Assembly (NCBI GenBank): GCA_964580455.1
Contig: CAZOKO010000003.1
Span: 1-52,716, forward strand
Length of the DNA stretch: 52,716 nt
Reading direction: 5' to 3'
Origin: an uncultured Thermodesulfobacteriota bacterium
GTDB taxonomy: Bacteria; Desulfobacterota; WTBG01
Part shown: piece after piece, positions 2,788 through 42,189 of the stretch
Numbering within the stretch: the first letter of the stretch is position 1
How the letters are laid out: each line of letters starts with the position of its first letter
The notes under the pieces: generated by a model
Databases searched by the model: none
Told to the model about the DNA's origin: nothing
The model's input: the letters and a program-made list of their open reading frames with translations, nothing else
Program-made: the position numbers and the translations under genes

Positions 2788-2796
2788 ACTTCCTCC

Positions 2797-14875: not shown

Positions 14876-15562
14876 GTGAAAAAGATAAGTTTAGTACTGT
14901 TGATTGTTTCCCTTGTTTTAGCAGTTGCTTTTATTTTTCCACGATTTGGGACGTCTAATCTATTGGTGGATGATAGTGGCTGTTTGGGATGTCACGATGC
15001 TGCTTACCCCGATGGAACATTACACAGTCAATCCGCTCATAGCAATTGTGACAGTTGTCATGCAGAAATGGGAGATACTCCATCTTCATCAAAGTGTATC
15101 ACGTGTCATCCACTGGGCAATACTGGCAAGTGTGAGTTGGTTCTTTCCCATGAAAATTCGACGGAGTATAATCCAAGCGGTGCATCCTGCATTAACTGCC
15201 ATGGGGATTGTGATGGAGGAGATACCACCACTACGACCACAGTCCCCCAAACAACCATCGCAGGTAATAGATACGAAGTATTCCTGATAGGACCATTTGA
15301 AGGCTGCACTGCTACCACATTGACCTTCAGGTCAGATAATATTTTAACTTTAGAATGTATGGATGGATTCGGAACTTACTTAGCATTTGGTAATATCTTT
15401 ACCGCATTCTACTGGTCAAATAATTATTATCAAGGTTACGGCCTGGGCATTCTCTTAAGTGGCATTGCACTTGACCCTTATATTATTGGGGGTGGAATAG
15501 CATATTTTGGTAATAATGTAAGTCCAGTAGTGATAACAGGATATATATTGAGCACTCCATAA
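14876..15562 (+). CDS. Secreted tetraheme cytochrome c module, Thr-rich linker and a Gly/Tyr-rich C-terminal domain of unknown function
   Basis: GTG start 7 nt after AAAGGAGG. Signal peptide VKKISLVLLIVSLVLAVAF. Motifs CLGCH, CDSCH, CITCH and CINCH, then the TTTTTT linker. The heme module is homologous to the repeats in 41062..42189. Confidence 0.75.
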   Translation: MKKISLVLLIVSLVLAVAFIFPRFGTSNLLVDDSGCLGCHDAAYPDGTLHSQSAHSNCDSCHAEMGDTPSSSKCITCHPLGNTGKCELVLSHENSTEYNPSGASCINCHGDCDGGDTTTTTTVPQTTIAGNRYEVFLIGPFEGCTATTLTFRSDNILTLECMDGFGTYLAFGNIFTAFYWSNNYYQGYGLGILLSGIALDPYIIGGGIAYFGNNVSPVVITGYILSTP

Positions 15563-15760
15563 AACGTCTCGGGATTTTTGCAGCTTAATAATTATTTTTC
15601 GCAAAAATCTAAAAACATTCCCTCTCTCTTGATGGGAGAGCATTGGGGGGAGGGGAAATATGGTTTTTTGTGAAACCGTCAAAAATAAACCTAGCTTAAG
15701 CGAAGTTTAAGCTAGGTTCAACTATTATTCCTTTTTAAACACCTTGCCTTCATAACTAAT

Positions 15761-16867
15761 ATGACAAGCTCACTTAGAAATGTTCTAATCTTTGCAAGTA
15801 TAATCTTAGCAGTAGCCATGATACCTTTTACAGGTAATTCTGCTGAGATTATGACCGCAAACGGTGTATCCACCTGCGATCTGTCTGGCAATCCCAGGAC
15901 GCATTTTAATCCTGGTGATGACATACGGTATGAGGTTAATTACACAATTGAAAATCCCATTGCATTTGTACTGATAGGCGGGAATGTTAACGGTGCTAAT
16001 CTCCAGGAGAATCTACACTGGCAATATGGAATATTATCTTCAGGCACTTATAATACCTTTTGGGATAAAAAATTACCTTCTGATGCAAGTGGCACAGCCA
16101 CAGTTACTATAATGTATATTGGTGTCATCGATGAAATTACAGTGAAAGAAACTTCATTTTCCATTGAGGAAGACACCCCCAACGAACCTACTGATGTAGG
16201 ATCAAATATCTGCGGGGCATGCCACTCAGAAATCTTTGATTCATTAAAGGATTCTGCACATGGATTTATAGAATGCGAATTATGTCATGGTCCTGGAAGT
16301 AACCATGCAAGCTCCCCTTCTGCAGATAATATCACAATTGACAAATCATCAGATCTATGCGGTCAGTGCCACACCAGGGGTGATGATCAGAACAGAATAG
16401 AAGTAGAAGATGGCCTGATAAAAAGCAACCAGCAATACGATGAACTGCTTAACGGGGGAAAAAGCTTCTTTAATTGTGTACAATGTCATGACCCCCACGT
16501 CAGTCTCAATTCAGACACTCATGATGCTATCACTTCCGATTGCAGTTCATGCCACAGTCAAACCATCAACCGGATCCATTCGGTAGCAGGTCTTGAGTGT
16601 CTCGATTGCCACATGCCCTACGCCGTAAAAGTATCAACATCCAGTAGAGAAGGAGATCATCTTAAAGGTGATGGCAAAAGCCACATTTTCACCATAGACA
16701 CAACTGCAAATCCCTCCAAGATGTTTTACCCGCAGAGTGGAAAAACTTTTTCAAACGGTTTTCTCACCTTAAACTTTGTATGTCTGGGATGTCATAACGG
16801 AATTCTTGCTAAAGAAAGGGAATTCGACTGGGCAGTACAAGGAGCAGCTCTTATACATTCTGAGTAG
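15761..16867 (+). CDS. Secreted heptaheme cytochrome c with an N-terminal beta-rich domain
   Basis: Signal peptide. Motifs CGACH, CELCH, CGQCH, CVQCH, CSSCH, CLDCH (followed by MPY as in NrfA-like proteins) and CLGCH. Confidence 0.8.
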   Translation: MTSSLRNVLIFASIILAVAMIPFTGNSAEIMTANGVSTCDLSGNPRTHFNPGDDIRYEVNYTIENPIAFVLIGGNVNGANLQENLHWQYGILSSGTYNTFWDKKLPSDASGTATVTIMYIGVIDEITVKETSFSIEEDTPNEPTDVGSNICGACHSEIFDSLKDSAHGFIECELCHGPGSNHASSPSADNITIDKSSDLCGQCHTRGDDQNRIEVEDGLIKSNQQYDELLNGGKSFFNCVQCHDPHVSLNSDTHDAITSDCSSCHSQTINRIHSVAGLECLDCHMPYAVKVSTSSREGDHLKGDGKSHIFTIDTTANPSKMFYPQSGKTFSNGFLTLNFVCLGCHNGILAKEREFDWAVQGAALIHSE

Positions 16868-16964
16868 CAATAAATCATCACTTCAAACTATTGTCTTAAC
16901 CAAAATCTCACCTTCTTCTATCAAAAATTCGAAATTTGAAGCACGAAACTCGAAACAAATTCAA

Positions 16965-17330
16965 ATGACCAAAATACAAAAACCAAAACAATATGATTTA
17001 GAAGATCGTACGTATGCTTTTGCAAAAAGAGTTCGAGTCTTCGTAAAGAAACTGGTTAAGACAATAGCAAACATTGAAGATGGGAAACAACTCATAAAGG
17101 CTTCTGGTTCCGTAGGCGCTAATTATATCGAAGCTAACGAATCACTAAGCAAGAAAGACTTCATCATGAGGATTAAAATCTGCCGTAAAGAAGCTAAGGA
17201 GAGTAGATATTGGTTGAGACTGATAGACACGCAAGATGATCTGCAATTAATTAACGAACAAAAATATCTTGAACAGGAAGCAACGGAACTAATGAATATT
17301 TTCGGTTCCATATTGCGGAACAGTAAATAA
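16965..17330 (+). CDS. Four-helix-bundle protein (23S rRNA intervening-sequence protein family)
   Basis: 121 aa counted from the internal ATG at 16965. Motifs include LEDRTYAFAKRV, GANYIEANES and KICRKEAKESRYWLRL. The upstream part of the track ORF is repeat DNA overlapping the previous gene. Confidence 0.8.
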   Translation: MTKIQKPKQYDLEDRTYAFAKRVRVFVKKLVKTIANIEDGKQLIKASGSVGANYIEANESLSKKDFIMRIKICRKEAKESRYWLRLIDTQDDLQLINEQKYLEQEATELMNIFGSILRNSK

Positions 17331-17506
17331 CGTTGCGAACATTTGATATTCGAATTTAGAATTTGTTTCGCATTTCGATATTCGGATTTCGTGCTTTTTA
17401 ACCTATCCCTTCTACCTAGTGCCCCGTCTCATAAATTCTGCATGCCAAATTGGCAAAATGAAATGTTGTCAAAATGTTTATAATTGATCCACTTATCAGA
17501 GACGGG

Positions 17507-17669: not shown

Positions 17670-17693
17670 TGAACATGACTTTTCGTTCAGTCA

Positions 17694-18290
17694 CTACCTA
17701 TATTCCGCAAAATCAACCTCAAACACTACTTTCTTCTTATCCTTTACTAAAACGATCTCGGCTTTATCGGTGGGACTAATTTTGTCATAAGAAAAATAGG
17801 TTCTTATTGTAGCACGATATTTAGGAAATCCTGAGGTTGCAATCTTTTTTTCAGGAAGGTAGGCAACGTGATTGGCTGAGATCTTCTCAGGCTCAATGGC
17901 TTTGCCTTTTTGTACCAGATGCACCTTGAATTCATTGGCAAAGTCTATCTTATTCCCAAAAGTATGGACATCAATCTGTAAATCGGTACTTTTTATAATT
18001 CTCTCTTTTTCTTGATCAGATATTTTTTTGTCTCCGGCAAACAAAAGACCAGAGAGCACCATGAGTTTATTCCACTTCGTCCTGATTATTCCATTCTCTT
18101 CAAATAAATCTTTTTCTCCAAATCTGTAGCGCTGCTTTAAATATTCAGCAACTTTATATCCCTGTTTTTCCCCTTGCTTTATTGCATCCTCTATGTCTGT
18201 TTCAGTAAGGCTCAACAAAACACCAGCAGCATTACGGCAGGGTATAATAAACAAAAGGTGGATAAAAATGATTAATAATTTCCTCCTCAT
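17694..18290 (-). CDS. Secreted hypothetical protein downstream of the porin gene
   Basis: 198-aa ORF with a hydrophobic N-terminal leader. No recognisable motif. Confidence 0.55.
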   Translation of the reverse strand: MRRKLLIIFIHLLFIIPCRNAAGVLLSLTETDIEDAIKQGEKQGYKVAEYLKQRYRFGEKDLFEENGIIRTKWNKLMVLSGLLFAGDKKISDQEKERIIKSTDLQIDVHTFGNKIDFANEFKVHLVQKGKAIEPEKISANHVAYLPEKKIATSGFPKYRATIRTYFSYDKISPTDKAEIVLVKDKKKVVFEVDFAEYR

Positions 18291-18647: not shown

Positions 18648-20480
18648 TCAGAACGTATAATTCATCCCGAAACTTATAAGGTGTGCTGTTCCATCCAGTT
18701 CATTAACTTCTCTGTCATTGTAGTCTCTATAATTGTATTTGGCATAAAAGGAGAGGTAAGGCTTGTAGATATAATCCAGTCCAATGGAAGCATCAACGCG
18801 CTCTACATTAAGATCTGAGAATTCTCCCACATTACTACTGTAAATGCTGGAATCATAATCAGACTTGGAATCGGTGAAAGTAAAATTGCTGACAAGGGCT
18901 ATGGACCTGCTAAAGCGGTAATTAAGCGCAAGATTGTAGCAGTGACTCCTGTCATCATAACGAAGCCTTTCATCATAGAGGTCTATACTGTGATAGGTCT
19001 TATAATTTGTTCGTGTCTTAATCTCTGTATCGATCTGACTATAGGAACCAGTGATGATAAAATTATCCCTGGGTGCATACCATAAACTAAACATCATCTC
19101 CAGTCTTTCTTCATCTATCTCATAACGGTTACTATCAGCATCTTCATAAAGAACTGTTGAGGAAAGCGAAAGATTCCCTCTCGGATTCCAGTTGAGCGAA
19201 AACCGAATCTCATCTGTCCTGGTGGGCAAACTGGTCTGCGTTGTTTGAAACAATGTCCACTGCTCATTAAGAAAGGGGTCATTAACCCTCTCATTCTTGT
19301 AACGTATATTAAAATTAATCTTCCGATGAGGTCTGCCAAAAAGAGAAATGTCAAAGACCTTTTTGAATGTAGACTCCTCTGCACTATTACTGCGATCGAC
19401 ATCCTCCCAACGATAACTCCCTCTCAAAAAGTTCCTCTTCCACGGTCTGGTCCTGAAGGAGACTTTACTCCTCTTGACATCTTTGTCCATAGCACCGGGA
19501 ACTTTACTGTTAACATCATAGTCATAATGATTAAAATTGAAGGTGACATACTTTAAACTGGCAGTAGTAAAGCGAAATGCAAAACTCTCAAATTCACGTT
19601 CATGACGTGTATCTTGATTATGATTCTCTCCCTTCTCATAATCGAAACAGAAAGAAGACTGCAAAGGAAGTTCTGCCTTTGCCCTAAACTTATTTACGTA
19701 AGTTCTTGAATCTGCAATACTGTTATATTTCTGAAAGCCTTTCACAGGAAACGACGGAGCAGGATAACCATAATATGCTATGGGAGATTTTCCACCTTCA
19801 TTAAAGCTTCTCTGCAAATGGCTATAATTGAAGGTAAAAGAACCTACCGTTATTTCTGTCCCAACATTAACATCCTCAGTGGTCTGATCTATACGCCTGT
19901 TTCTGGAGGTAACATGACACTGTGCACATTTGTTCACCGTGGTAGCCTGTCTGTGACCTCGCTTATTCAACTGCCTGTAATTCGCATTCACCTTAAAGTT
20001 AGGAAGGAAGGGAATGCGAAAAGTATTATCACTTTTTATCTCTTCCCTGATGATAGCATTACTTTTACCTGCATCGAAGTCAGTAAAGAAATCCTGGTTT
20101 TCTAAAGGATCATGGTCAAGATAGTGTTTAAAACGGTTATATGATGTCTCCGATTGAAAAAGCCTGTTGACATCCAAATCCATCATATAATGCTGATCAT
20201 CCTTATCTTTGATATCACCACCCAGGTCCAAATACTTACTGCGTGTATGAGCCTTTAAAGAGAAATACCCCTCCATGCCTGGATCCAGTACATCATACTC
20301 CCCCACCTTTCCCCGATTACCATTCACAGTAGCATGGTGATACCCTATACCCGCATCAAAGGTATATTCTTCCTCCTCAAGCAAGTTTCCCGCCCAGCTA
20401 ACATTATACGGGGTAAAACTAATAAATGTTATGATTGCAAGAAAAAAGGCAAATATGAAACCAGTTTTATTAACCACCAT
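18648..20480 (-). CDS. Outer-membrane beta-barrel protein, MtrB/PioB-like partner of the upstream decaheme cytochrome; carries one CXXCH
   Basis: Signal peptide. Alternating aromatic/polar beta-strand pattern throughout. C-terminal ...GMNYTF ends in Phe, a typical OMP beta-signal. CAQCH at aa 185-189. It lies immediately downstream of a 10-heme cytochrome gene. Confidence 0.65.
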   Translation of the reverse strand: MVVNKTGFIFAFFLAIITFISFTPYNVSWAGNLLEEEEYTFDAGIGYHHATVNGNRGKVGEYDVLDPGMEGYFSLKAHTRSKYLDLGGDIKDKDDQHYMMDLDVNRLFQSETSYNRFKHYLDHDPLENQDFFTDFDAGKSNAIIREEIKSDNTFRIPFLPNFKVNANYRQLNKRGHRQATTVNKCAQCHVTSRNRRIDQTTEDVNVGTEITVGSFTFNYSHLQRSFNEGGKSPIAYYGYPAPSFPVKGFQKYNSIADSRTYVNKFRAKAELPLQSSFCFDYEKGENHNQDTRHEREFESFAFRFTTASLKYVTFNFNHYDYDVNSKVPGAMDKDVKRSKVSFRTRPWKRNFLRGSYRWEDVDRSNSAEESTFKKVFDISLFGRPHRKINFNIRYKNERVNDPFLNEQWTLFQTTQTSLPTRTDEIRFSLNWNPRGNLSLSSTVLYEDADSNRYEIDEERLEMMFSLWYAPRDNFIITGSYSQIDTEIKTRTNYKTYHSIDLYDERLRYDDRSHCYNLALNYRFSRSIALVSNFTFTDSKSDYDSSIYSSNVGEFSDLNVERVDASIGLDYIYKPYLSFYAKYNYRDYNDREVNELDGTAHLISFGMNYTF

Positions 20481-20670: not shown

Positions 20671-21588
20671 CTACCTCGTCAACACCCCTCTCCCCATTTG
20701 AGAAGGCAAATCACTTCCATGGATCTGCGAATGACACTGAGTACAGGATGTAATCAGTGTTGACATGGTAGGATGTATCCCTGCCATATCAATCCCACGA
20801 TGTCCTCGATGACAGCGCAGGCAAAGAAATGGCTCGCTCTGTTTTAAAAGATTATTAGCAATTGTTCCATGAGCATCATGGCAGATATCACAACCTTCCT
20901 CTACCGGAGGATGCTCATAGACAAAAGGTCCCTGCTTATCCGCATGACACTCAAAACAGAGATCATTAACAGACAAAGCCTTTAAACCATTTGGTTCCCC
21001 TCCATGAGTATTATGACACTCAGCACATTTCATCTTACCTTCTCTTATGGGATGGTGGGAGGGAAATTGTGCTCGTGCTCTCATTTGCTGGTGACAATCG
21101 TAACAGAGTTCGGGATCTTCCTTATACAACATTTTCTTTGCTGTTGTCTTATGTGACTTATGACAATCGTTACATCCCACATCACTTAAGGCATGAAGAT
21201 TACTTTTCCAGTGAATGAGGGATCCTTGAGCATGACATTTTAAGCAAATGGATGAGCTCTGAGCCGCCGTTAATTTACTAAAATTAATTATCTTCTCAAC
21301 ATCACCCCTTTCCATCACATGGGCACTCCCCGGCCCGTGACATCCTTCGCATCCTCTCTCACTGCCTGCAACTTCAAAACTGCGTATTTTGTAATGAATA
21401 GTTTCTCTAAAGTACTCAAACACATCTTCATGGCATACTGCACATGCTTCTGAACCAACATAGGTCGCATCGGGTAAAGTAACAACAGGAGCAACGTAGC
21501 TACTATATCGAGTACATGCGCTGATAATACAGAGTAAAAGAATATTGCTCCCGAAAATCCACTTTGGAATGTTGAATTTGGAAAACAC
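20671..21588 (-). CDS. Periplasmic decaheme cytochrome c (MtrA/DmsE/PioA-like)
   Basis: 305 aa with a leader containing an ISAC lipobox-like site. It has ten canonical CXXCH motifs: CAVCH, CEGCH, CLKCH, CNDCH, CYDCH, CAECH, CFECH, CDICH, CLRCH and CTQCH. Confidence 0.85.
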   Translation of the reverse strand: MFSKFNIPKWIFGSNILLLCIISACTRYSSYVAPVVTLPDATYVGSEACAVCHEDVFEYFRETIHYKIRSFEVAGSERGCEGCHGPGSAHVMERGDVEKIINFSKLTAAQSSSICLKCHAQGSLIHWKSNLHALSDVGCNDCHKSHKTTAKKMLYKEDPELCYDCHQQMRARAQFPSHHPIREGKMKCAECHNTHGGEPNGLKALSVNDLCFECHADKQGPFVYEHPPVEEGCDICHDAHGTIANNLLKQSEPFLCLRCHRGHRGIDMAGIHPTMSTLITSCTQCHSQIHGSDLPSQMGRGVLTR

Positions 21589-21770
21589 TTTTCACCTTAA
21601 CTGCAATAAGACGAGTTTATTGGAAAAATAATCTCTTGACATCTCTAGTAATATATAATATTTAGCAATCCTCAATTTGTAATTCCATACCAGATTCTTT
21701 TTAGAATTGCAAAGAATAATTCATGATTTTTTGTTTTTTTAAATTTGTTTCATTTATTATTACAGGGAAA

Positions 21771-22847
21771 ATGTGTCAACCAGGGAAAAGAAGCTCTTCT
21801 AAATTAACCCCCCTTATTTACCTTATCTCTTTTTTTTCAATAATCAGCTTTGCTCAATCTTCTTTAGCTTTTGATGAGCAAAATTGCCTGCTCTGTCATA
21901 AATATCGGGGATTGAGCTATATAGATGAAGACGGGCAACTCATGCTTCTCTACATCACCGAACCCAGTTATTTGAATAGCCCCCACGCACTACCCAAATG
22001 CGGAGATTGCCACACAGATGTAGAGGGGTTTCCTCATGAATCAGTGAAGAAAGTCGATTGCCTTGTACAATGCCATGTAAGAGAGCCTTTTTCAGAAAAG
22101 TTATTTTCCCATAAAAAATCAGCAGATTTACTGAATGATAGTGTTCACTCCAGAAGGGATAAAGACGGCAATCTAAAGGAACATCAGGAAGATTTGCCAG
22201 ATTGTAAAACCTGTCATAATGATCCGCTATACAGACCTTTCTACTACTTTAAATCTGCACATGCTGGCATATCGAAAAAGGTAATAGGTCGCTGCCTTGT
22301 CTGCCACGATGATGATATTTATGTAAAGAAATTTTACAGCCATTTTTCCTCCCGCATGCAAAAACTGAGACCTCCTAAAGAACTGGTTGCTATGTGTGGT
22401 AAATGCCATGAAGATGACGAGGTCATGCAACGCCATGGCCTTCCAAATGTGTTGCATTCCTACAGGGAGACTTATCATGGCAAGGCTGTTCATTTTGGTG
22501 ATGAGTGGACTCCAGACTGTCTGGATTGTCATGTGAAAGCAGGAGAGTCTGTACATCTTATGCACGCAAAAGACGATCCCAGATCATCCGTCCATAAAGA
22601 CGAAGTATTTAACACCTGTTCGACTCTCGACTGTCATCCAGGAACTGACTCAAAGCTGGATGGTTTTAATCCTCACCCATCACCAGACATAAAAAAGAAT
22701 CCCGTTATATTTTTTGCTACACTCTTTTTCTATTTTCTCACTACCATTACCATTGTTTTTGTCATGCTAATGATTATCCTGGACATAGCAAGAAGATTAT
22801 TCCCTAATTGTTCTCTTTTTCCACTGAAAAGTAGAGATAATAAATGA
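21771..22847 (+). CDS. Membrane-anchored multiheme cytochrome c (6 CXXCH plus conserved CX3CH and CX4CH), module 1 component A
   Basis: The signal peptide runs from the internal ATG at 21771; the track ORF begins at 21723. It has a C-terminal TM helix. Its stop overlaps the next start (ATGA). Paralog of 34001..35140. Confidence 0.8.
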   Translation: MCQPGKRSSSKLTPLIYLISFFSIISFAQSSLAFDEQNCLLCHKYRGLSYIDEDGQLMLLYITEPSYLNSPHALPKCGDCHTDVEGFPHESVKKVDCLVQCHVREPFSEKLFSHKKSADLLNDSVHSRRDKDGNLKEHQEDLPDCKTCHNDPLYRPFYYFKSAHAGISKKVIGRCLVCHDDDIYVKKFYSHFSSRMQKLRPPKELVAMCGKCHEDDEVMQRHGLPNVLHSYRETYHGKAVHFGDEWTPDCLDCHVKAGESVHLMHAKDDPRSSVHKDEVFNTCSTLDCHPGTDSKLDGFNPHPSPDIKKNPVIFFATLFFYFLTTITIVFVMLMIILDIARRLFPNCSLFPLKSRDNK

Positions 22848-33556: not shown

Positions 33557-33850
33557 ATGGTTGATCACTTATACAGTGTTTATATCTTAGCAAGTAAAAG
33601 AAATGGCACACTGTATATCGGTGTTGCTGCAAATTTGATTAAGAGAGTCTATGAACATAAAAATCATTTGGTTGATGGCTTTACCAAAAAATATAATATT
33701 CATAATTTGGTCTATTATGAAACAACAGAAGACATTAGCAGTGCAATAAGAAGAGAAAAACAAATTAAAAAATGGAAAAGGAAGTGGAAAATAGAACTAA
33801 TTGAGAAGAAAAACCCAAATTGGAGAGATCTTTATCATGACTTGATATAG
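33557..33850 (+). CDS. GIY-YIG nuclease family protein (small stand-alone type)
   Basis: YSVYILASKRNGTLYIGVAANLIKRVYEHK...REKQIKKWKRKWK is the classic UPF0213/GIY-YIG pattern. About 97 aa. Confidence 0.8.
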   Translation: MVDHLYSVYILASKRNGTLYIGVAANLIKRVYEHKNHLVDGFTKKYNIHNLVYYETTEDISSAIRREKQIKKWKRKWKIELIEKKNPNWRDLYHDLI

Positions 33851-34000: not shown

Positions 34001-35140
34001 ATGAAAGCTCGAACTCTCTTATTTAAATTTTTACTAACTGTAATGACCATGGCAACTTCGCTTTATTTTATCCCCTGCCTCATGGCGGCAGATGTAGAAA
34101 ACTGTGATCTCTGCCATAAATATTCAGGGCTTGGAAGAATCGATGAATCAGGCAAGAAACACCTCTATTATGTGAATGATGTATTATGCCAGCAATCTGT
34201 TCACAGAAAGATTCGCTGCAAGGAATGCCATAGTGACATTGAGAAGTACCCTCATCCCAATCCTGAAGAAGTGGATTGCTCCACAGTATGCCACCTTGTT
34301 GACCCTTCAACAGACAATAAATTTTCACATGCCAATATGATTGAAGGGTATGATCTGAGTGTTCATGGAAAAGGCCCTGAAGACAATCCCAAAGAACACC
34401 CGGAAGACCTCCCTTCCTGCACTTACTGTCATGAAAACCGCACCTACCAGCCGGTAAGTGGGCTGGCTGACGAGCATAGAGGAGTTGCTCAGGAAATCCT
34501 GGACCGATGTCTGGGCTGCCACACGGATGAACAATGGACCCGGTACTTCTACAATCACTTCACCCATCGTTTGCATCAGCGTCGTTCTTCCGAAAGAATG
34601 GTAGAATTGTGTACATCATGTCATGAGGATGATGAGATGATGGAACGTCATGGCTTAATTGTAACTGGTACTTTTCATGATACCTTCCACTGGCAGGCTA
34701 TAAAATATGGAGATCCTAATGCCCCTAATTGCATTACATGTCATGCTCCTGTCGGATATTCATCACACGAGATCATGCCCAAAGATGATCCCCTCTCTGC
34801 CATCCATAAAGACAACCTGGTTCGAACCTGCAGCAACCAGGGCGGTCTCCAGACATGCCATCCCAACGCCACCACTGCTTTTGCCCAGGGCAGAATTCAC
34901 CCCACACGATACAAAACGGGTGTCTTTGAAACCAAAATGAGATCCTTCCAGTCTTTATTTGCCAGTCCGGCAAGTGCAGAATTGACTGGACTGGAGTATT
35001 ACCAGCAACTACTTCTTCAACTCATAAAGTTTTTTTATATGATACTCATAGGCGGTCTTATAAGTTTCATGATACTGCATCAAATACTGGATTATTTTGC
35101 CACCAGAAGAGAAATTAAAAAAGGAGGACTGCACCAATGA
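34001..35140 (+). CDS. Membrane-anchored multiheme cytochrome c (6 CXXCH plus CX3CH and a long-spacer CXnCH), module 2 component A
   Basis: Signal peptide and C-terminal TM helix. Collinear with 21771..22847. ATGA overlap with the next gene. Confidence 0.8.
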   Translation: MKARTLLFKFLLTVMTMATSLYFIPCLMAADVENCDLCHKYSGLGRIDESGKKHLYYVNDVLCQQSVHRKIRCKECHSDIEKYPHPNPEEVDCSTVCHLVDPSTDNKFSHANMIEGYDLSVHGKGPEDNPKEHPEDLPSCTYCHENRTYQPVSGLADEHRGVAQEILDRCLGCHTDEQWTRYFYNHFTHRLHQRRSSERMVELCTSCHEDDEMMERHGLIVTGTFHDTFHWQAIKYGDPNAPNCITCHAPVGYSSHEIMPKDDPLSAIHKDNLVRTCSNQGGLQTCHPNATTAFAQGRIHPTRYKTGVFETKMRSFQSLFASPASAELTGLEYYQQLLLQLIKFFYMILIGGLISFMILHQILDYFATRREIKKGGLHQ

Positions 35141-35859
35141 ACGGAGACAAAGAAAGTTGGACAATCGGTGAACCCGAATCGTATCTTCCCCATAAGGAGA
35201 AGTATTATATCCGGCTTAACCTTACTGAACGGATCCAGCACCATCTTGTCTGGACCACCTTTGTAACCCTCGCTATAACAGGATTTATGGTAGAATTCCC
35301 TGAAGACTGGCTATCCCTTTTGGGTTCTCATAAAGAAACTGTTTTCTACTATCGAGGGTTACTTCACAGGATTGCCGCTGTAGTCATGACTGCAAATCTC
35401 TTCTATCAGGCATGGTATATTACGCTCGCAAAACCAGGTAGAGGTTATATTGTCGACATGATTCCCAGACTCAAGGATGCCAAAGATTTCTATCAAAACA
35501 TGTGCTATTACTTGAGACTGACCGACCAAAAACCCCTTTTTGACCGATTCAATTACAAAGAGAAGCTGGAATACTGGACAGGCTGGATAGGCAATATTAT
35601 CATTACAGTAACCGGGTTTTTCCTCTGGTTTCCAAAATACTTTCCCAAATTTGTTTTCGACCTTTCTATTCTACTACATACCATGGAAGCAATCCTGGCC
35701 TCTTGTGCCATCATGGTATGGCATTTTTACGAGGTTCACCTAAAACCAGGTAAGTTCCCTATGTCTAGAATATGGCTGGATGGGAAAATTCCCGAACATG
35801 AACTTGAGGAAGAACATCCGCTTGAATATCAACGTATTAAAGAGGCTGAGATCAGCTAA
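35137..35859 (+). CDS. Membrane cytochrome b (FdnI/HydC/PhsC-like), module 2 component B1
   Basis: 240 aa, polytopic. RIQHHLVW and other conserved His residues. Aligns to the N-terminal half of 22844..24514. Confidence 0.8.
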   Translation: MNGDKESWTIGEPESYLPHKEKYYIRLNLTERIQHHLVWTTFVTLAITGFMVEFPEDWLSLLGSHKETVFYYRGLLHRIAAVVMTANLFYQAWYITLAKPGRGYIVDMIPRLKDAKDFYQNMCYYLRLTDQKPLFDRFNYKEKLEYWTGWIGNIIITVTGFFLWFPKYFPKFVFDLSILLHTMEAILASCAIMVWHFYEVHLKPGKFPMSRIWLDGKIPEHELEEEHPLEYQRIKEAEIS

Positions 35860-35890
35860 AAACCGTTGTTTGATCAACATGAGGTTATAA

Positions 35891-36700
35891 ATGATGAATA
35901 AGACACCAAATCCATCTTTAATTTTACATATGATATATAACTTACTTGGATTTCTATTCCTGTTATTTATCATTGTGAGTGTAGCATCCCTTGCTAAATT
36001 CCTCTATTTCCCCTCACGCGATTTAGCTATATCAAAAGATATACCACCAGACAAATTTTCTAAAACGATAAGGAAAACTGTGGGGGCAGGTCATTTTCAC
36101 ATTTTAGACAAAACTGTATATACCGACGTGGAAAACGCTCCAATATGCTTGCAATGCCACGGAAATTTTTGTCATGTCAAATCCGAGAAGCTAAGATCGT
36201 TTTACAATATGCACACTTTCTTCCTGGCTTGTGAAACCTGTCACATTAGAAAAAAAGAAGGGGAAGATATCACATTTAAATGGTTTGATGACAAAACCGG
36301 TGAAATCATTACAGAGCTTAAGGGAGAAAATGGAAATTTTGGTGCCAAGATCGTTCCTGCAAAGGGTGGAGATGGGGAGGAACTTAAACGACTGGATGAA
36401 TTCCCTGAAGACAAGAAGGCCCTTGATTTTATAAAAAATAGAGATACATATACCGAGGATGAAAAGAAAACCTTCATAGAAGTATGCATGAAGAAACACA
36501 TTTCTGAAAAAGCAATTGAATGTGAAGAATGTCACCAGAAGAATGGTTATTTTGACTACAAAGCTCTTGGCTATGATCCGGTTCGCTCGGCTGAACTATC
36601 GCGCATTGAAATCGTCCAGATGTCCAAAGATTATGATGAATTCTATTTGCCGACCATGTTTGACCCAAACATAGTTGGTGGAGAAGGTGGTGGGAGTTAG
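35891..36700 (+). CDS. Single-TM triheme cytochrome c, module 2 component B2
   Basis: N-terminal TM helix. Motifs CLQCH, CETCH and CEECH. Aligns to the C-terminal half of 22844..24514 (for example FYNMHTFFLACETCHIR versus FLNMHNFYLACETCHIR). Confidence 0.8.
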   Translation: MMNKTPNPSLILHMIYNLLGFLFLLFIIVSVASLAKFLYFPSRDLAISKDIPPDKFSKTIRKTVGAGHFHILDKTVYTDVENAPICLQCHGNFCHVKSEKLRSFYNMHTFFLACETCHIRKKEGEDITFKWFDDKTGEIITELKGENGNFGAKIVPAKGGDGEELKRLDEFPEDKKALDFIKNRDTYTEDEKKTFIEVCMKKHISEKAIECEECHQKNGYFDYKALGYDPVRSAELSRIEIVQMSKDYDEFYLPTMFDPNIVGGEGGGS

Positions 36701-36950: not shown

Positions 36951-36974
36951 CTTTTGTATAATGGAGGTTTTTCT

Positions 36975-37913
36975 TTGTACCTTATGTATCGATTACTACA
37001 TAGTGTTCTCACGGTTTCACTTTTTGCGTTTACTCCAGTTGCAAATGCACAGGAAGTTTCTGTCCCTATCTTCAGGGCTCAACCCCTCCTTACCATTCAA
37101 CATAGTTTTAGACAGCCCAGTGATGTGGTTGTTGGAAATAACAAAAAAGTTTACGTTCTGGACGGAGTCAACAATAAGATAAAGGTTTTTAACCTTCAAG
37201 GTACCTACCTCTTCTCCTTTGGGGGAACTGGAAAAGGCAAAGGGAAATTCAATTTCCCATTGGGAATAGGTATAGATAAAAATGACCGGATTTATGTGGC
37301 TGACTCAGGTAACCACAGGGTTCAGATTTTTAACTCTGACGGAGCATATCTATCTCAGTTTACAACGAACACCGATAAAGGGAAACCATCCGATCCAACA
37401 GATGTTGTGGTAAACAGCAAATTAAAAACATGCTATGTTGTTGATAATGACAATCACAGGATTATCCTCTATGACCTGAAGAAAAATACAATAATAAACA
37501 TCCAGGGAACAATGGGGATGGGAAAGAAGGAATTTCGTTTCCCCTTTTTAATCGATATAAATCAGGAAGGGAATCTTTACATTGTTGAGGTAATCAACGC
37601 CAGAGTCAAGGTTCTTGACCCAGAAGGAAACTATGTTACTAACATTGGAGGTTGGGGGGTAGAAAAAGGAGAGTTTTACAGACCCAAAGGGGTGGCAATT
37701 GATTCTAAAAACAGAGTATTTGTAAGTGATAGTTATCTTGGAGTCATCCAGGTGTTCGATCAGGATGGGAAATTTTTATCTGTTCTTGGAGATAATAAAG
37801 GCAATATCTTAAAATTCGAAACACCAACCGGCCTCTTCATTGATAAGAAAATGAGGCTGTATGTTGTAGAGATGCTCGCTGATAGAGTAAAAGTCCTTCG
37901 TTTAAAAGATTAA
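36975..37913 (+). CDS. Secreted NHL-repeat beta-propeller protein, module 2 component C
   Basis: Paralog of 24569..25489. My preferred start is the TTG at 36975, 7 nt after GGAGG. The track ORF starts at 36954, and an ATG at 36984 is also possible. Confidence 0.85.
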   Translation: MYLMYRLLHSVLTVSLFAFTPVANAQEVSVPIFRAQPLLTIQHSFRQPSDVVVGNNKKVYVLDGVNNKIKVFNLQGTYLFSFGGTGKGKGKFNFPLGIGIDKNDRIYVADSGNHRVQIFNSDGAYLSQFTTNTDKGKPSDPTDVVVNSKLKTCYVVDNDNHRIILYDLKKNTIINIQGTMGMGKKEFRFPFLIDINQEGNLYIVEVINARVKVLDPEGNYVTNIGGWGVEKGEFYRPKGVAIDSKNRVFVSDSYLGVIQVFDQDGKFLSVLGDNKGNILKFETPTGLFIDKKMRLYVVEMLADRVKVLRLKD

Positions 37914-38076
37914 TAATCACCCCTCATATACTTCACCGCAGAGGACGCAGAAATCGCTGAGAAAATATAGAAAAAAAGTACCTATGAATAATCAGTAAAT
38001 TGCCATGGTTTTACCTCTATTTTCTCTGTGTCCTCTGTGGTTGGTTGTATTTTTCACCTTATGAAAGGAAATACCT

Positions 38077-39480
38077 TTGAAAAACTCATTTCTAAAAGAT
38101 TTTTGGTCCTTCATCACTTCCCTTAAGTTAACTGTAATCATACTGATTATCTTGTCCATTACTTCCATTATCGGTACCATAATACCACAAAATGAATTGC
38201 CTTATATTTATCTTAAATATTACAAGCCTTCCACTTACAAATTGTTTAAACTCTTAAGTTTTGACGATATGTATAACTCCTGGTGGTTCACAACCCTTCT
38301 GGCGCTTTTTACCCTCAACCTCATATGCTGTTCATTCAAACGTTTCCCAAATTTCTGGAGACTTATAACCCAAAAAGAGAGAGACCTTGATGATCAACTT
38401 TTACAGTCACTGCCTCTTAAAAAGACGTTCCGATTAAAAGAATTAAGTGATCACACTAAAGCTGAACTGAGTCGGATTGTGCAAAAGCACTTCCATAAAC
38501 CAACTATTTTTCACACTTCATCTGATGTCTTAAGTCTTTTTGCCGGGAAGGGTAAGTATACCAGGTTGGGTTTTCATATCACACATATTGGGATAGCGCT
38601 GATTATCATTGGTGGTATTCTTGGGAACTATGGTTACCAGGGATTTATGAAGGTAGTTGAAGGAAAAACATCTGATATTATAACATTAAAAGGCACCACA
38701 AAACAAAAAAAACTGGATTTCTCCATCCGCTGTGACGATTTTGAGGTTTCCTTCTACCAGGAGACTCAGAGGCCAAAGGACTATAAGAGTAACTTGACTA
38801 TTATCGATGGAGGGAAGGAAGTTAAAAAGAAACTCATTGAAGTAAATGACCCTCTCTATTACAAAGGAGTTTATATCTATCAATCCAGCTATGGAACCGT
38901 TCCAGACCAGGGAGAAGTTGTTTTGAGTGTCGCACCCAGGGCAAATGCAAAACAAACCAGAAAATACAAAGCTGAAATAGGTGAGAGTTTTACCTTAGAG
39001 GATAAAAGCCACGATGTTAAAGTAAAACGATTCATTCCAGATTTTACTTTAGATCAAAACAAACAGGCAGTAAGCCGCTCTCAGGAACCAAGAAATCCAG
39101 CAGTGCAAATTGCACTTTTTAAGGATAATAAATTACTCTATGAAAAATGGATTTTTTTAAAATTTCCAGATTTCCATGGATCAGAAAAAGGAGATTATCT
39201 ATTTACCCTTTCGGGCTTTTCAGCGAAAGAATATACAGGACTCCAGTTAACTAAAGACCCGGGTGTATGGGTGGTATGGATTGGATGTTTTTTACTAACA
39301 TTGGGTTGCTATCTTCTATTTTTTATGAGCCATCGGAGACTATGGATTGTTGCTGAGAACAAAAAGGGGGAATATATTGTCACTATGGCTGGCACAAGCA
39401 ATAAAAATATGTTATCATTCTCTAAAGACTTTGACCAAATCCATCAAGAATTGAAAATAATAGGGAAATCAGTCACTTAA
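38077..39480 (+). CDS. ccsB: System II cytochrome c biogenesis protein CcsB/ResB
   Basis: 467 aa. N-terminal TM segments, a large soluble domain and a C-terminal TM segment. It is immediately followed by ccsA. TTG start. Confidence 0.8.
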   Translation: MKNSFLKDFWSFITSLKLTVIILIILSITSIIGTIIPQNELPYIYLKYYKPSTYKLFKLLSFDDMYNSWWFTTLLALFTLNLICCSFKRFPNFWRLITQKERDLDDQLLQSLPLKKTFRLKELSDHTKAELSRIVQKHFHKPTIFHTSSDVLSLFAGKGKYTRLGFHITHIGIALIIIGGILGNYGYQGFMKVVEGKTSDIITLKGTTKQKKLDFSIRCDDFEVSFYQETQRPKDYKSNLTIIDGGKEVKKKLIEVNDPLYYKGVYIYQSSYGTVPDQGEVVLSVAPRANAKQTRKYKAEIGESFTLEDKSHDVKVKRFIPDFTLDQNKQAVSRSQEPRNPAVQIALFKDNKLLYEKWIFLKFPDFHGSEKGDYLFTLSGFSAKEYTGLQLTKDPGVWVVWIGCFLLTLGCYLLFFMSHRRLWIVAENKKGEYIVTMAGTSNKNMLSFSKDFDQIHQELKIIGKSVT

Positions 39481-39491
39481 AAATGATAATT

Positions 39492-39640
39492 TCAAAAAAA
39501 GTCACTAACTAGACGGCACAGTAAGAAGCTCCAGATGCAAGGCGCGCGAATCTTTAGGAATGAGGCGTACTTAAGAGTACGTCGGAATGACTAAAGAAGA
39601 AGCGCAACACAGCAGATGGACTTTTTACGAAGCCGTCAAA
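39492..39640. repeat. Intergenic repeat element between ccsB and ccsA
   Basis: Contains the hairpin GGCGTACT-TAAG-AGTACGTC (39564-39583). It also contains the 14-mer GGACTTTTTACGAA (39618-39631), which is identical to 5388-5401. Confidence 0.55.
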
Positions 39641-39659
39641 CATAAAAGGAGAAGCAAGG

Positions 39660-40499
39660 ATGGACAGTTCTTTTTTCTTAGGTATTACAACCTTTATATA
39701 TCTTTTTGCTATGGTTCTATATTTCTACTATCTCTTCTTCAGAAACAAAACATTGGGGATCATCGTAAAAGTTACTACTATTATAGGTTTTCTAGCTAAC
39801 ATATCTGGATGGGCTATCCGCTGGGTAGAATCTTATCAAATGGGACATGGTTATATCCCATTATCTAATATGTACGAAGCCCTAGTCACCTTGTCCTGGT
39901 GTACTGTTTTGATGCTTCTCGTAATAGAACAAAAATATAAGACAGACATCTTGGGAGTTTTTGTATTTCCCATCGTTTCAATTGCTATGGCTTATGCTTC
40001 ACTTTCTCCTAGCGTTCGAGACGAGATTGAACCTTTGATCCCGGCGTTACAAAGCAACTGGCTCACTTATCATGTCTTTACCTGCTTTTTTGGCTATGCC
40101 GCTTTTGCTATTTCTTTTGGCGTAAGCATTGTCTATCTTGTTAAAAACAGGAAAGCAAAAGCGTCTTCAGGGGAAAGTTCAGGTCTGCTCCCTGATCTAA
40201 ATATTCTAGATGAAGTCATTTACAAGGCTAATGCAGTTGGATTTCTGCTCTTAGGGATAGGCATAATTACAGGGGCAGTCTGGGCAAATTATGCCTGGGG
40301 AAGTTACTGGAGCTGGGATCCCAAGGAGACCTGGTCTCTCATTACCTGGTTTATATACGCCACTTTTCTCCACGCCAGACTGACCAGAGGATGGAGAGGG
40401 AACAAAGCAGCTATTCTATCCATTATAGGTTTTTGTGGCGTCCTCTTTACCTTTTTGGGAGTTAACTATGTCCTCTCCGGTCTGCACAGTTACGCTTAG
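39660..40499 (+). CDS. ccsA: System II cytochrome c biogenesis protein CcsA/ResC (heme handling, WWD motif)
   Basis: Polytopic, 279 aa. WGSYWSWDPKETW is the Trp-rich WWD signature. Confidence 0.85.
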   Translation: MDSSFFLGITTFIYLFAMVLYFYYLFFRNKTLGIIVKVTTIIGFLANISGWAIRWVESYQMGHGYIPLSNMYEALVTLSWCTVLMLLVIEQKYKTDILGVFVFPIVSIAMAYASLSPSVRDEIEPLIPALQSNWLTYHVFTCFFGYAAFAISFGVSIVYLVKNRKAKASSGESSGLLPDLNILDEVIYKANAVGFLLLGIGIITGAVWANYAWGSYWSWDPKETWSLITWFIYATFLHARLTRGWRGNKAAILSIIGFCGVLFTFLGVNYVLSGLHSYA

Positions 40500-40539
40500 T
40501 TACCTGGACTTTTACAAATTCAGAGGTGGGTAGGGAAGG

Positions 40540-41088
40540 TCATCCAGAGGATATTTTGAAATAGAATATCTTATCCCTGAGTGTTCTTTCAATCTTAAAG
40601 TTTGTTTCCTGCCTAAGCTTTTTATTCAGACGGGATATCAGGAGTCGAAGGGCATGCATATCATGGATATTAAGTTTTTTGTTGCATACCTCATTAAAAA
40701 TTTCCTCGTAGTTTTTCTCGCCTTGGCGAAGTATCTTAAATAACTCAAGCTGTTTTGGTTTAAGAAGGGTGTGAATATTCTCGCTCTGCTTTTTCCTTCT
40801 TTCTTGTTCAAGCATTGCAGCAGGATTTTCTTTAATTTCAATTAACTCTTTCTTAAGCTCACTTATAAGGAGGCTCTTTTCTCTTAACTCATTTTCTCTT
40901 TCTTCTAAAATGTAAAGTAACTCGCTGGATCCAAGATCGTCGTCCCGTTCCAGTAGCTTATCACTTTTAAATCCATCAATGTAGGAAATCACTTCGTCCA
41001 AATCCAGAGGCTTAGGAAGAATAATCTCCACCCCTTCCTTTTTTGCTTCCCCAACCAGCTTATGCATGGTGTATGCAGTTATCATCAT
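40540..41088 (-). CDS. Response-regulator remnant: only the last part of a receiver domain, a coiled-coil and a winged-helix-like C-terminus (likely 5'-truncated)
   Basis: It begins MMITAYT...KKEGVEIILPKPLDLDEV, which corresponds to receiver beta4-alpha5 only. No phospho-acceptor Asp region is present. Its 5' end overlaps the 5' end of 41062..42189. Confidence 0.5.
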   Translation of the reverse strand: MMITAYTMHKLVGEAKKEGVEIILPKPLDLDEVISYIDGFKSDKLLERDDDLGSSELLYILEERENELREKSLLISELKKELIEIKENPAAMLEQERRKKQSENIHTLLKPKQLELFKILRQGEKNYEEIFNEVCNKKLNIHDMHALRLLISRLNKKLRQETNFKIERTLRDKIFYFKISSG

Positions 41089-42189
41089 TATGTTACTACC
41101 ACAATACCGTTTGGATCACATACTGATCGGTGTATGAGTTGTCATTATCGTGATGATATGCATGAAAGAGTAGGGCATAGTGATTGCGCTCAATGTCATG
41201 AGGACACACCGGGAAGAAAGGAAAACTTTATGGGAGCAGAGGCGTGTGCTGCCTGTCATCCGGGAAGTGATCCCGGCAAGTGCGGTTTAGTAGAAGTACA
41301 TCCTCCCATGTGGTGCTTCGACTGTCACAAAGAGTGCGAAGAGGTCGTAACTACCACTACGGTAGGACCTGACCCTACGACGACTACTACAGCACCACCT
41401 TCTGATCATATTGGAACCTGTTTAAAATGTCATTCCACGGATGATTTACATGAGTACGAAGGACACAGTAACTGTTCTGGGTGTCATGATGGTACGGCTC
41501 AATCGGGCAATGTAGAACCCGGTGCATGTATTACCTGTCACCCAACAGGTGATCCGGATAAGTGTAACTTGGTAGACATACATGGTTCTTCCTGCTACGA
41601 ATGCCACTTTGAATGCACGGGGGGAACTACTACTTCAGTAAAGCCAACTACCACTACAACAACAGTACCCTCCTCTACACATATTGGAACATGCTCACAA
41701 TGTCATCATACGGATGATTTACATGAACGTGCAGGACACAGTGAATGTAGTATCTGTCATGATGGTACACCTCAAGCGGGGAATGTAGAGCCATCGGCAT
41801 GTATCCTCTGTCACCCCATAGGTAATGCGGGTAAATGTAACTTAGCAAACATTCATGGCAGTTCCTGTCTCACATGCCACTTCGAGTGTGAGGGGAATAC
41901 AACCACTACTTCAGAGAAACAAATTCCCGATACCACAACAACCTCTTCCGCTACACAACCTTGCACAGCAGAAGAAATTTATGGCGAGGACTCAGAAGAA
42001 GTTGAACTCCTGAGACATCTTCGAGATAATGTGCTGGGTGCAACCCCTGAAGGGCAGGAGATGATAAGACTCTACTATCAGTGGAGTCCTATAATAGTTA
42101 AAACAATAGAAAATGACGATGAATCTAAAGAAGAGATAAAGGAAATAATTGATGGTCTATTGCTATTGATCAGGGCAGAGGTTGATTAA
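41062..42189 (+). CDS. 12-heme modular cytochrome c (3 tetraheme modules joined by Thr-rich linkers plus a helical C-terminal domain); N-terminus apparently missing
   Basis: Module 1: CMSCH, CAQCH, CAACH, CFDCH. Module 2: CLKCH, CSGCH, CITCH, CYECH. Module 3: CSQCH, CSICH, CILCH, CLTCH. Poly-T linkers join them. There is no signal peptide, and the ORF opens inside a TTT linker. Confidence 0.7.
   Translation: MHGVCSYHHYVTTTIPFGSHTDRCMSCHYRDDMHERVGHSDCAQCHEDTPGRKENFMGAEACAACHPGSDPGKCGLVEVHPPMWCFDCHKECEEVVTTTTVGPDPTTTTTAPPSDHIGTCLKCHSTDDLHEYEGHSNCSGCHDGTAQSGNVEPGACITCHPTGDPDKCNLVDIHGSSCYECHFECTGGTTTSVKPTTTTTTVPSSTHIGTCSQCHHTDDLHERAGHSECSICHDGTPQAGNVEPSACILCHPIGNAGKCNLANIHGSSCLTCHFECEGNTTTTSEKQIPDTTTTSSATQPCTAEEIYGEDSEEVELLRHLRDNVLGATPEGQEMIRLYYQWSPIIVKTIENDDESKEEIKEIIDGLLLLIRAEVD

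Follow-up and report, generated by a model that had tools for sequence, protein, structure and literature searches.

A cluster of genes for multiheme c-type cytochromes occupies positions 14843 to 42189 in a 52,716-nucleotide stretch of contig CAZOKO010000003.1 (assembly GCA_964580455.1), which derives from an uncultured marine Thermodesulfobacteriota bacterium. This stretch at its full length is referred to below as the window. The cluster probably encodes an extracellular electron transfer (EET) system that spans the cell envelope and links the menaquinone pool, and probably also a neighboring formate dehydrogenase (FDH), to the cell exterior. Its components include two inner-membrane cytochrome modules, two exported 20-heme cytochromes, a decaheme cytochrome encoded next to an outer-membrane barrel, further exported cytochromes and a pair of heme attachment proteins (Table 1).

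The original prediction made from this DNA described a c-type heme island with roughly 106 canonical CXXCH motifs in 12 open reading frames (ORFs). Motifs in these ORFs were recounted by script from the full ORF list. There are 4, 7, 1, 10, 6 and 3 in the ORFs beginning at 14876, 15761, 18648, 20671, 21771 and 22844, and 20, 20, 14, 6, 3 and 12 in those beginning at 25486, 29264, 31802, 34001, 35891 and 41062, which reproduces every predicted count and gives a total of 106. Positions 14876 and 21771 correspond to alternative start codons inside the ORFs that begin at 14843 and 21723. When the residues of each protein are shuffled 1000 times, 0.8 ± 0.9 motifs are expected by chance, with a maximum of 5. 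All six reading frames from 14843 to 42189 together contain 107 motifs, so essentially all of them reside in called frames. In alignments with related loci, each canonical motif is kept in essentially all homologs. Additional noncanonical sites had also been proposed, and most are conserved. In ORF 21723, the CX3CH motif at residue 113 and the CX4CH motif at residue 299 each occur in 48 of 48 homologs, as does the CX3CH motif at residue 93 in ORF 34001, and the CX4CH motif at residue 369 of the 14-heme ORF 31802 occurs in 21 of 21. Conservation does not extend to the CX4CH site at residue 89 in ORF 35891 (8 of 57 homologs).

Attachment of heme c requires export of the protein. N-terminal signal peptides, lipoboxes or membrane anchors are encoded by 11 of the 12 ORFs, and these signals are kept in homologs. 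The sole ORF that does not specify an export signal is ORF 41062, which is a truncated gene remnant (see below) with 12 of the 106 motifs. The remaining 94 motifs are in export-competent proteins. Two more multiheme-type genes fall beyond the range first assigned to the island, namely a 9(+1)-CXXCH gene at 1618-2960 and the sensor kinase gene at 12876-14522.

The inner-membrane portion of the system consists of two paralogous sets, A and B. Each set provides three components: a c subunit anchored at its C-terminus, a diheme cytochrome b and a triheme domain that is likewise anchored to the membrane. The two c subunits are 37% identical. In set A, the cytochrome b and the triheme domain are fused into one protein with hydrophobic segments near residues 25, 71, 158, 191 and 282, and its three CXXCH motifs are kept in 12 of 12 homologs. 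Each half of this fusion is 31% identical to the corresponding separate protein of set B. The set B cytochrome b matches Pfam Ni_hydr_CYTB with 47.2 bits (cut-off 30.1) and an NCBIfam FDH gamma-like family with 57.9 bits. Four histidines (H35, H77, H181 and H196) are invariant in 49 sequences and fall in four hydrophobic segments with FdnI-like spacing. Because of this arrangement, the protein is classed as a diheme cytochrome b. By analogy with FdnI and CbcB, it could react with quinol and conduct electrons through the membrane. In both sets, the stop codon of the c-subunit gene overlaps the start codon of the b gene, which indicates that the two are co-translated.

The 20-heme cytochromes have a modular organization. 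Repeats three and four are 43% identical (E 2e-48), and the outer repeats are related more weakly, yet significantly. Relatives with 24 hemes exist and are consistent with the presence of a sixth repeat. An alignment of 67 sequences contains 39 invariant histidines, which are the 20 proximal heme ligands and 19 others. Almost all of the hemes are therefore likely to be bis-histidine ligated and to serve electron transfer rather than catalysis. These proteins are regarded as probable wires rather than enzymes because nearly every heme has a conserved second histidine. A profile search with the alignment recovered two short local matches only. The set B gene is the likely ancestral copy; the single copy carried by relatives matches set B best.

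Other proteins encoded among these genes are candidates for structural roles. The NHL-repeat propellers of sets A and B are 47% identical to each other. The protein with the fold of formylglycine-generating enzyme (FGE) that is encoded between the two 20-heme genes has a lipobox cysteine that is also present in the close homologs listed, and its gene lies directly 5' of a 20-heme gene in 21 related loci. When it is aligned with FGE (6muj), the sequence 'GGSYLCHDSYCNRYR' corresponds to 'GGAWYNNET---ALR', and both copper-binding catalytic cysteines are absent. Because these residues are gone, the protein is read as a scaffold. It also matches PorK, an FGE-fold ring lipoprotein, and by this analogy a scaffold function is likely.

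At the outer membrane, the cluster encodes a decaheme lipoprotein and a barrel. The decaheme protein scores 366.7 bits against the GSU2203 family (NF041028, cut-off 325) and 262.7 bits against TIGR03508 (cut-off 192.2), which places it in the DmsE/MtrA family. Residues 44-296 align with the solved structure of MtrA (6r2q_A, E 1.5e-44). All 10 CXXCH motifs are kept in 14 of 14 homologs, and the lipobox cysteine is present in each of the 12 homolog N-termini listed. The barrel matches Pfam MtrB_PioB (PF11854) with 43.2 bits (cut-off 23). Its best NCBIfam match is the 'GSU2204 family CXXCH-containing (seleno)protein' (NF041027), for which its 279.8 bits fall below the cut-off of 350. An AlphaFold2 model built from an alignment of 51 homologs (predicted local distance difference test score, pLDDT, 85.4) is a single barrel with about 26 long strands. 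A Foldseek search of the PDB with this model returns MtrB (6r2q_B) as the top match, with an E value of 1.9e-19 and template modeling (TM) scores of 0.77/0.73 and a sequence identity of about 10%. The runner-up barrels have TM scores of 0.50 or less.

The barrel carries a single CXXCH motif of its own, and its residues C185, C188 and H189 are invariant in the 51 homologs, whose identity is as low as 23%. In the model, this motif is located in the turn that joins two unusually long strands (residues 162-183 and 189-212). Strand counting and the alternation of short turns with long loops place it on the long-loop side, which presumably faces outside. The barrel gene contains no selenocysteine codon. 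Downstream of it is a gene for an exported 198-amino-acid protein with no Pfam or NCBIfam match, which adjoins the porin gene in 10 related loci.

Several other exported cytochromes could act beyond the barrel. Among homologs of the 14-heme protein, some have a lipobox and others a plain signal peptide. The 7-heme protein matches the Pfam families MtrC-MtrF_II-IV and Paired_CXXCH and aligns locally with the surface cytochrome 6i5b (E 2.5e-11). The 4-heme unit of ORF 14843 shares 41% identity with the repeats of the ORF 41062 remnant. Sequence searches of the PDB gave no match for the 14-heme or the hexaheme proteins. As originally predicted, the System II maturation genes ccsB and ccsA are found at the end of the cluster (38077-40499), with the 12-motif remnant located past them. 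The ccsB/ResB gene has the same position in the related locus L015 and in a Thiobacillus locus described below.

These components suggest the following electron path. In the inner membrane, the two paralogous modules, whose architecture and heme ligands are evident from the sequences, would exchange electrons with quinol. Electrons would then pass along the 20-heme wires, which, if their hemes are arranged linearly, may reach across much of the periplasm, with the NHL propellers and the FGE-fold lipoprotein serving as putative docking scaffolds. Homology suggests that the decaheme MtrA-like lipoprotein resides inside the 26-strand MtrB-like barrel. The barrel's own CXXCH motif, at the tip of a long hairpin, could carry a covalently attached heme outside the cell. 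At the surface, the 14-, 7- and 4-heme cytochromes are candidate extracellular partners. The CcsBA pair, identified by family membership, would attach the roughly 100 hemes. Family memberships, heme motifs and ligands, topology signals, the barrel fold and the co-occurrence of the genes are established by the analysis. Quinol reactivity, contacts between subunits, attachment of heme to the barrel, exposure at the surface and the direction of flow are all inferred in this scheme. A dedicated extracellular or long-range electron transfer locus had been predicted. The locus is indeed dedicated, with parts that match known EET hardware; no filament- or cable-type component that would point to long-range transport was identified in it.

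Table 1. Features of the cytochrome cluster and its flanks, in order of position.
Feature	Coordinates	Strand	Basis or remarks
Formate dehydrogenase alpha subunit, one gene read through TGA 8844-8846	6396-9410	-	Twin-arginine signal
NtrC-type sigma54-dependent response regulator	11516-12886	-	Response_reg, Sigma54_activat and HTH_8 domains
Sensor histidine kinase, candidate heme sensor	12876-14522	-	HAMP, HisKA and HATPase_c domains
Membrane-anchored or exported 4-heme cytochrome with Thr-rich linker and C-terminal non-heme domain	14843-15562	+	4 CXXCH; hydrophobic segment 15-33
Exported 7-heme cytochrome	15761-16867	+	7 CXXCH, signal peptide; motifs kept in 6-7/7 homologs
Small 23S-rRNA-intervening-sequence-family protein	16965-17330	+	Pfam PF05635; insertion-like, outside the machinery
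Exported 198-amino-acid protein of unknown family, downstream of porin	17694-18290	-	Signal peptide
MtrB-like 26-strand outer-membrane barrel (OmcL/GSU2204 family)	18648-20480	-	Pfam, NCBIfam, AlphaFold2, Foldseek; 1 CXXCH
Decaheme lipoprotein cytochrome, MtrA/DmsE-like (OmcK/GSU2203 family)	20671-21588	-	NCBIfam, PDB match; 10 CXXCH
Set A multiheme c subunit	21723-22847	+	6 CXXCH + CX3CH + CX4CH; C-terminal transmembrane segment 334-352
Set A fusion of diheme cytochrome b (FdnI/HydC type), fifth transmembrane helix and periplasmic triheme domain	22844-24514	+	Ni_hydr_CYTB
Set A exported NHL-repeat six-bladed beta-propeller	24569-25489	+	Pfam NHL 105.8 bits; signal peptide
Set A 20-heme cytochrome, five tandem 4-heme repeats	25486-28014	+	20 CXXCH; Sec-type signal peptide
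FGE-fold lipoprotein	28323-29144	+	FGE-sulfatase PF03781 214 bits; between the two 20-heme genes
Set B 20-heme cytochrome	29264-31795	+	20 CXXCH; 60% identical to set A copy
Exported 14-heme cytochrome (+1 conserved CX4CH)	31802-33412	+	14 CXXCH
Small GIY-YIG domain ORF	33557-33850	+	PF01541; insertion-like, outside the machinery
Set B multiheme c subunit	34001-35140	+	6 CXXCH + CX3CH; C-terminal transmembrane segment 341-359
Set B diheme cytochrome b (FdnI/HydC type), putative quinol/quinone site	35137-35859	+	Ni_hydr_CYTB
Set B triheme cytochrome, N-terminal anchor	35891-36700	+	Transmembrane segment 14-32; 3 CXXCH kept in 57/57
Set B exported NHL-repeat beta-propeller	36954-37913	+	Pfam NHL 94 bits; PDB NHL propellers E 3e-52
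CcsB/ResB, System II cytochrome c biogenesis	38077-39480	+	Pfam ResB PF05140 341.2 bits
CcsA, System II heme lyase subunit	39660-40499	+	Pfam Cytochrom_C_asm PF01578 191.9 bits
5'-truncated response regulator, receiver N-terminus with phospho-Asp lost	40540-41088	-	Comparison with L038 homolog
5'-truncated remnant of 16-heme CFI-box-CTERM surface cytochrome	41062-42189	+	12 CXXCH left; no signal peptide

The module recurs in many other genomes. A pattern scan with one genome per species yielded 44 related loci, which were compared with the window proteins by tblastn. Almost all of them are in metagenome-assembled genomes (MAGs) of Thermodesulfobacteriota ('Deltaproteobacteria'), with a few from Verrucomicrobiota and one from Myxococcota, and the closest is 82% identical. 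Genes for the hexaheme c subunit, cytochrome b, triheme, NHL, 20-heme and 7-14-heme proteins are found together in 33-39 of the 44 loci. The FGE-like gene is present in 21 loci, the decaheme gene in 18 and the porin gene in 11. Duplicated NHL and 20-heme genes are unusual and characterize the clade of the window, with the same arrangement found on fragments of GLR311 and BS1bin.6, the two relatives nearest to it. In a Desulfosudis oleivorans MAG, the two inner-membrane sets occur in tandem and are followed by one NHL and one 20-heme gene. A more distant version resides in Thiobacillus sp. 65-29 (GCA_001899775.1, L056) at 3455-17328. It includes 8- and 7-heme cytochromes, a cytochrome b, a triheme, an NHL protein and a 24-CXXCH cytochrome (motifs counted from the ORF; the called gene encodes 1022 amino acids), as well as a second NHL gene, an 11-heme cytochrome, ResB and CcsA. 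This supermodule points to spread of the module across phyla.

This distribution bears on a different reading, in which the core of cytochrome b/c, NHL, 20-heme and 14-heme proteins works in the periplasm as a complex that respires a soluble substrate, for example an oxyanion of sulfur, nitrogen or a metal(loid), and the outer-membrane pair is a mere neighbor. Many loci do carry the core with no porin gene within 10 kb, although the closest relatives all keep the porin and decaheme genes side by side. The triheme domains match a tetrathionate-reductase octaheme family, with scores of 31-37 bits that are about ten-fold under the cut-off of 375. NHL and FGE folds can be catalytic, and a gene pair for a rhodanese and a selenocysteine cytochrome is located nearby. 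However, the FGE-like protein is devoid of both catalytic cysteines, and 19 of the 20 hemes in the 20-heme protein have an invariant extra histidine, with no CXXCK or other catalytic-heme signature. A complex dedicated to a soluble substrate is accordingly judged very improbable, and an envelope-spanning EET system is the favored interpretation.

Individual parts of this system resemble known EET hardware. As in Shewanella MtrAB (MtrCAB, PDB 6R2Q) and in PioAB/MtoAB, a decaheme cytochrome of the DmsE/MtrA family is encoded beside a barrel of the MtrB/PioB family. Unlike MtrA, the decaheme protein is a lipoprotein in all homologs listed, and unlike MtrB, the barrel carries an invariant CXXCH motif. 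There is also no partner of the MtrC/OmcA family. The two proteins also resemble OmcK and OmcL (GSU2203/GSU2204) of Geobacter sulfurreducens, a biochemically uncharacterized pair, with the decaheme protein above the GSU2203-family cut-off and the barrel under that for GSU2204. The omcK and omcL genes are adjacent, are treated as a candidate EET conduit and are also found in HotSeep-1 and Seep-SRB2, the partners of anaerobic methanotrophic archaea (PMC10553843). They are induced on hematite and magnetite in Geobacter (PMC4070692). In contrast to OmcK/OmcL, the pair described here belongs to a far larger conserved gene cluster that also encodes inner-membrane modules and 20-heme cytochromes.

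The inner-membrane sets can be compared by description with CbcBA and CbcL of Geobacter, whose architecture they share: an anchored c subunit is encoded just before an FdnI/PhsC-type cytochrome b. CbcBA is a b/c quinol oxidoreductase that comprises the 7-heme CbcA (GSU0594) with a C-terminal anchor and the diheme CbcB (GSU0593), and a sigma54 regulator is encoded adjacent to it (bioRxiv 10.1101/2021.04.15.440034). The window likewise has a c subunit with a heme count of 7 (including the CX3CH site) and a sigma54-type response regulator nearby. It differs from CbcBA in having two paralogous copies and an additional anchored triheme that is always present and is fused to cytochrome b in set A. 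No -24/-12 promoter was found in the intergenic regions of the island. A search of NCBIfam returned no family for the c subunits of these sets. The electron transfer module of anammox Planctomycetes (hexaheme, cytochrome b and triheme) provides an architectural analogy only. An anammox origin of the DNA, at first suggested by this resemblance and by the GC content of roughly 40%, was rejected, as all close relatives are Thermodesulfobacteriota MAGs.

Large periplasmic cytochromes and NHL proteins also have precedents. [quoted passage not shown] By description, the likeness is one of concept, since both systems combine a very large periplasmic cytochrome with a porin and other multiheme proteins, whereas PCC3 as described has no cytochrome b, triheme or NHL component. 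Equivalence of the 20-heme family with PCC3 was considered and rejected; the Thiobacillus relative occurs in a cytochrome b/NHL/CcsBA context and not in the four-gene PCC3 layout. NHL genes are interleaved with multiheme genes in Desulfovibrio ferrophilus (DFE_0448-0451 and DFE_0461-0465; PMC9769857). The Uet system of Tenderia has NHL proteins, triheme cytochromes and a beta-barrel with adjacent ccsA/ccsB genes (bioRxiv 10.1101/2022.05.06.490989). In contrast to the present cluster, the descriptions of both systems mention no cytochrome b modules, and UetJ is an undecaheme protein compared to the 20 hemes here. No description of this specific conserved gene combination was found in the literature. 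The parts are of known kinds, and their particular combination seems to be undescribed.

Several observations count against assigning the cluster to EET. The whole basis for this assignment is homology and gene neighborhood. No surface decaheme cytochrome of the MtrC/OmcA family is encoded in the window, where matches to TIGR03507 reach 32-38 bits compared to a cut-off of 209.3, and the barrel falls short of the threshold for its own best family. The AlphaFold2 model of the 20-heme protein has a pLDDT of 76 that is weaker in the first 250 residues, leaving the N-terminal third at low confidence, and a Foldseek search of the PDB with this model found nothing at E <= 0.001. The loci that carry the inner-membrane/NHL/20-heme core away from a porin gene indicate that the core may work in the periplasm only. 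In D. ferrophilus, deletions in the NHL-linked cytochrome clusters left Fe(III) oxide reduction unimpaired (PMC9769857). Finally, the same module is present in a Thiobacillus, which makes it less likely that electrons can flow only outward.

Net electron flow most probably runs outward, to particulate Fe/Mn oxides or other extracellular acceptors in an anoxic water column, and the system could run inward too. In that event, the same hardware would deliver electrons from reduced minerals, Fe(II) or a syntrophic partner (by direct interspecies electron transfer) to the quinone pool for respiration of sulfate or another acceptor. The supermodule recurs in a genome of Thiobacillus, a genus of lithotrophic oxidizers. 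Homologs of OmcK and OmcL are highly expressed in the electron-receiving, sulfate-reducing partners of methane-oxidizing archaea, for which reverse operation of CbcBA has been proposed (PMC10553843). The Thiobacillus module and the OmcKL homologs in electron-accepting syntrophs make inward flow an alternative to be taken seriously. It is nevertheless unlikely. An electron source, the periplasmic FDH, adjoins the cluster, and no terminal reductase such as Dsr or Apr is encoded within the window. The direction cannot be set from sequence alone.

The term island suggested an accessory or acquired element, and a deviation in base composition had been proposed as a check. Neither is borne out. The GC content of roughly 40% follows a continuous profile, and the GC content of third codon positions is 0.33-0.44 in island genes compared to 0.35-0.50 in the flanks. 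A relative with about 60% protein identity retains the cluster together with the right-flank genes of the window in the same order on a 1.27-Mb contig (L015). This order is decaheme/porin/198-amino-acid gene, FGE-like, 20-heme, 14-heme, hexaheme, cytochrome b, triheme, NHL, ccsB, ccsA and right-flank genes. No integrase, transposase or tRNA gene is present at the borders of the cluster. Because its composition is like that of the flanks and its gene order is kept in a distant relative, the cluster is a long-resident, vertically inherited one and not a recently acquired island. The exact window proteins are also present on marine metagenome contigs, and the sequence has been assembled from several samples.

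The right end of the cluster has suffered a deletion. Between 41032 and 41100, the genes at 40540 and 41062 overlap head to head, each without its 5' end. The homolog of the regulator in L038 has about 83 extra N-terminal residues that constitute the receiver domain, and this missing portion was not found upstream or elsewhere in the window. The cytochrome ORF is preceded by an in-frame stop codon just 5', has an N-terminus that is not hydrophobic and begins within a Thr-rich linker. Its C-terminus is a sorting-type domain (NCBIfam CFI_box_CTERM, 46.7 bits compared to 40). In the full-length homologs P0192 and P0193 (54-56% identical), the protein begins with a signal peptide and contains an additional 4-heme repeat. 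Assemblies from JGI, ENA and Logan, which are independent of one another, all show the same junction. Since it is shared by three sources, the site is a real deletion joint that has left two gene remnants. The same agreement rules out an assembly chimera at 41.06-41.10 kb. An inversion within the window was also considered and is ruled out; the receiver N-terminus is nowhere else in the window.

Two small ORFs interrupt the cluster as well, one for a protein of the 23S-rRNA-intervening-sequence family with no counterpart in related loci (ORF 16965) and one for a GIY-YIG domain (ORF 33557). Both look like small selfish insertions. Together with the two truncated genes, these might be taken as signs of decay or loss of function of the cluster in this population, which would make its motif density a relic. 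Such decay is scarcely credible, as the remaining ORFs are full length compared to their homologs, their heme motifs, ligand histidines and signal peptides have all been preserved, and the same sequence has been assembled from several samples.

The left border of the cluster agrees with the original prediction of a heme-sensing kinase/NtrC pair and a periplasmic FDH. The kinase has CXXCH motifs at residues 113 and 150 in a periplasmic domain between transmembrane-like segments at 10-28 and 189-207. Homologous kinase/NtrC pairs adjoin the same cytochrome module in more distant loci (L017, L020, L021 and L048), and this recurrent neighborhood is what suggests a regulatory link to the cluster. 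A search for -24/-12 sites (TGGCAC-N5-TTGC) in the intergenic regions of the island and upstream of the cytochrome operons produced nothing convincing. Among intergenic sites, the best sigma54 candidates precede the FDH operon (10944, minus strand) and the set B NHL gene (36776). Generic scans for sigma70 promoters and terminators performed at chance level and defined no operon boundaries. The divergent region between the decaheme gene and set A (21589-21722) is 134 base pairs long with 27% GC and contains a TTGACA box followed by a TATAAT-like sequence, which suggests sigma70-type rather than sigma54-type control of these two operons. Another sigma54 activator, which has a PAS sensor domain in place of the receiver, is encoded at 3618-4979 (minus strand), between the FDH operon and the selenocysteine cytochrome/rhodanese pair. 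Its homologs are also found near the module in L017, L020, L021 and L048.

The FDH alpha subunit is encoded by a single gene with a TGA codon in the canonical motif 'HQARI-U-HSATV'. Because this codon is read through, the organism uses selenocysteine. An FDH of this kind, exported by the twin-arginine pathway, could feed periplasmic cytochromes directly. Just 5' of the catalytic subunit gene is a molybdenum/tungsten cofactor riboswitch (9494-9604, minus strand; Rfam RF01055, 44.5 bits compared to a cut-off of 36). Farther to the left, a lipoprotein multiheme cytochrome with 10 CXXCH motifs in all (1618-2960, minus strand) is split by an in-frame TGA at 2797-2799 ('GEG-TGA-GGS'). This codon and its flanks are kept in the homologs from L010, L013 and L031, and such conservation indicates that it probably specifies selenocysteine. 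RNA folding downstream of this TGA was no better than that of shuffled sequences. The next gene (516-1493, minus strand) encodes a double-rhodanese lipoprotein, and the rhodanese/selenocysteine-cytochrome pair recurs near the cytochrome cluster in relatives. This pair (516-2960) recalls ExtH/ExtKL of Geobacter, with NCBIfam matches to ExtH and ExtM that are far under their cut-offs.

The recurring set of a 7-8-heme c subunit, a diheme cytochrome b, a triheme, an NHL protein, a 20-24-heme cytochrome, a 7-14-heme cytochrome and a private CcsBA pair might, as a tentative proposal, constitute a distinct and unnamed 'quinol-to-outer-membrane' conduit that occurs across phyla and uses one modular cytochrome to bridge the periplasm. 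The version in Thermodesulfobacteriota would join this set to an MtrB-like barrel with a covalent heme on an outward hairpin. The invariant heme motif of the barrel and the five-fold 4-heme repeat pose testable structural questions about the route of electrons through the periplasm and the outer membrane in a system that has no MtrC-type partner. The core module, which is found in Thermodesulfobacteriota, Verrucomicrobiota, Myxococcota and one Thiobacillus, could provide a sequence marker for EET that is independent of poorly conserved surface cytochromes. If the proposed function is correct, then an abundant uncultured Thermodesulfobacteriota lineage of anoxic marine water columns would possess a complete and self-sufficient means of electron exchange with particles or partners, which would bear on Fe/Mn and sulfur cycling at marine redoxclines.

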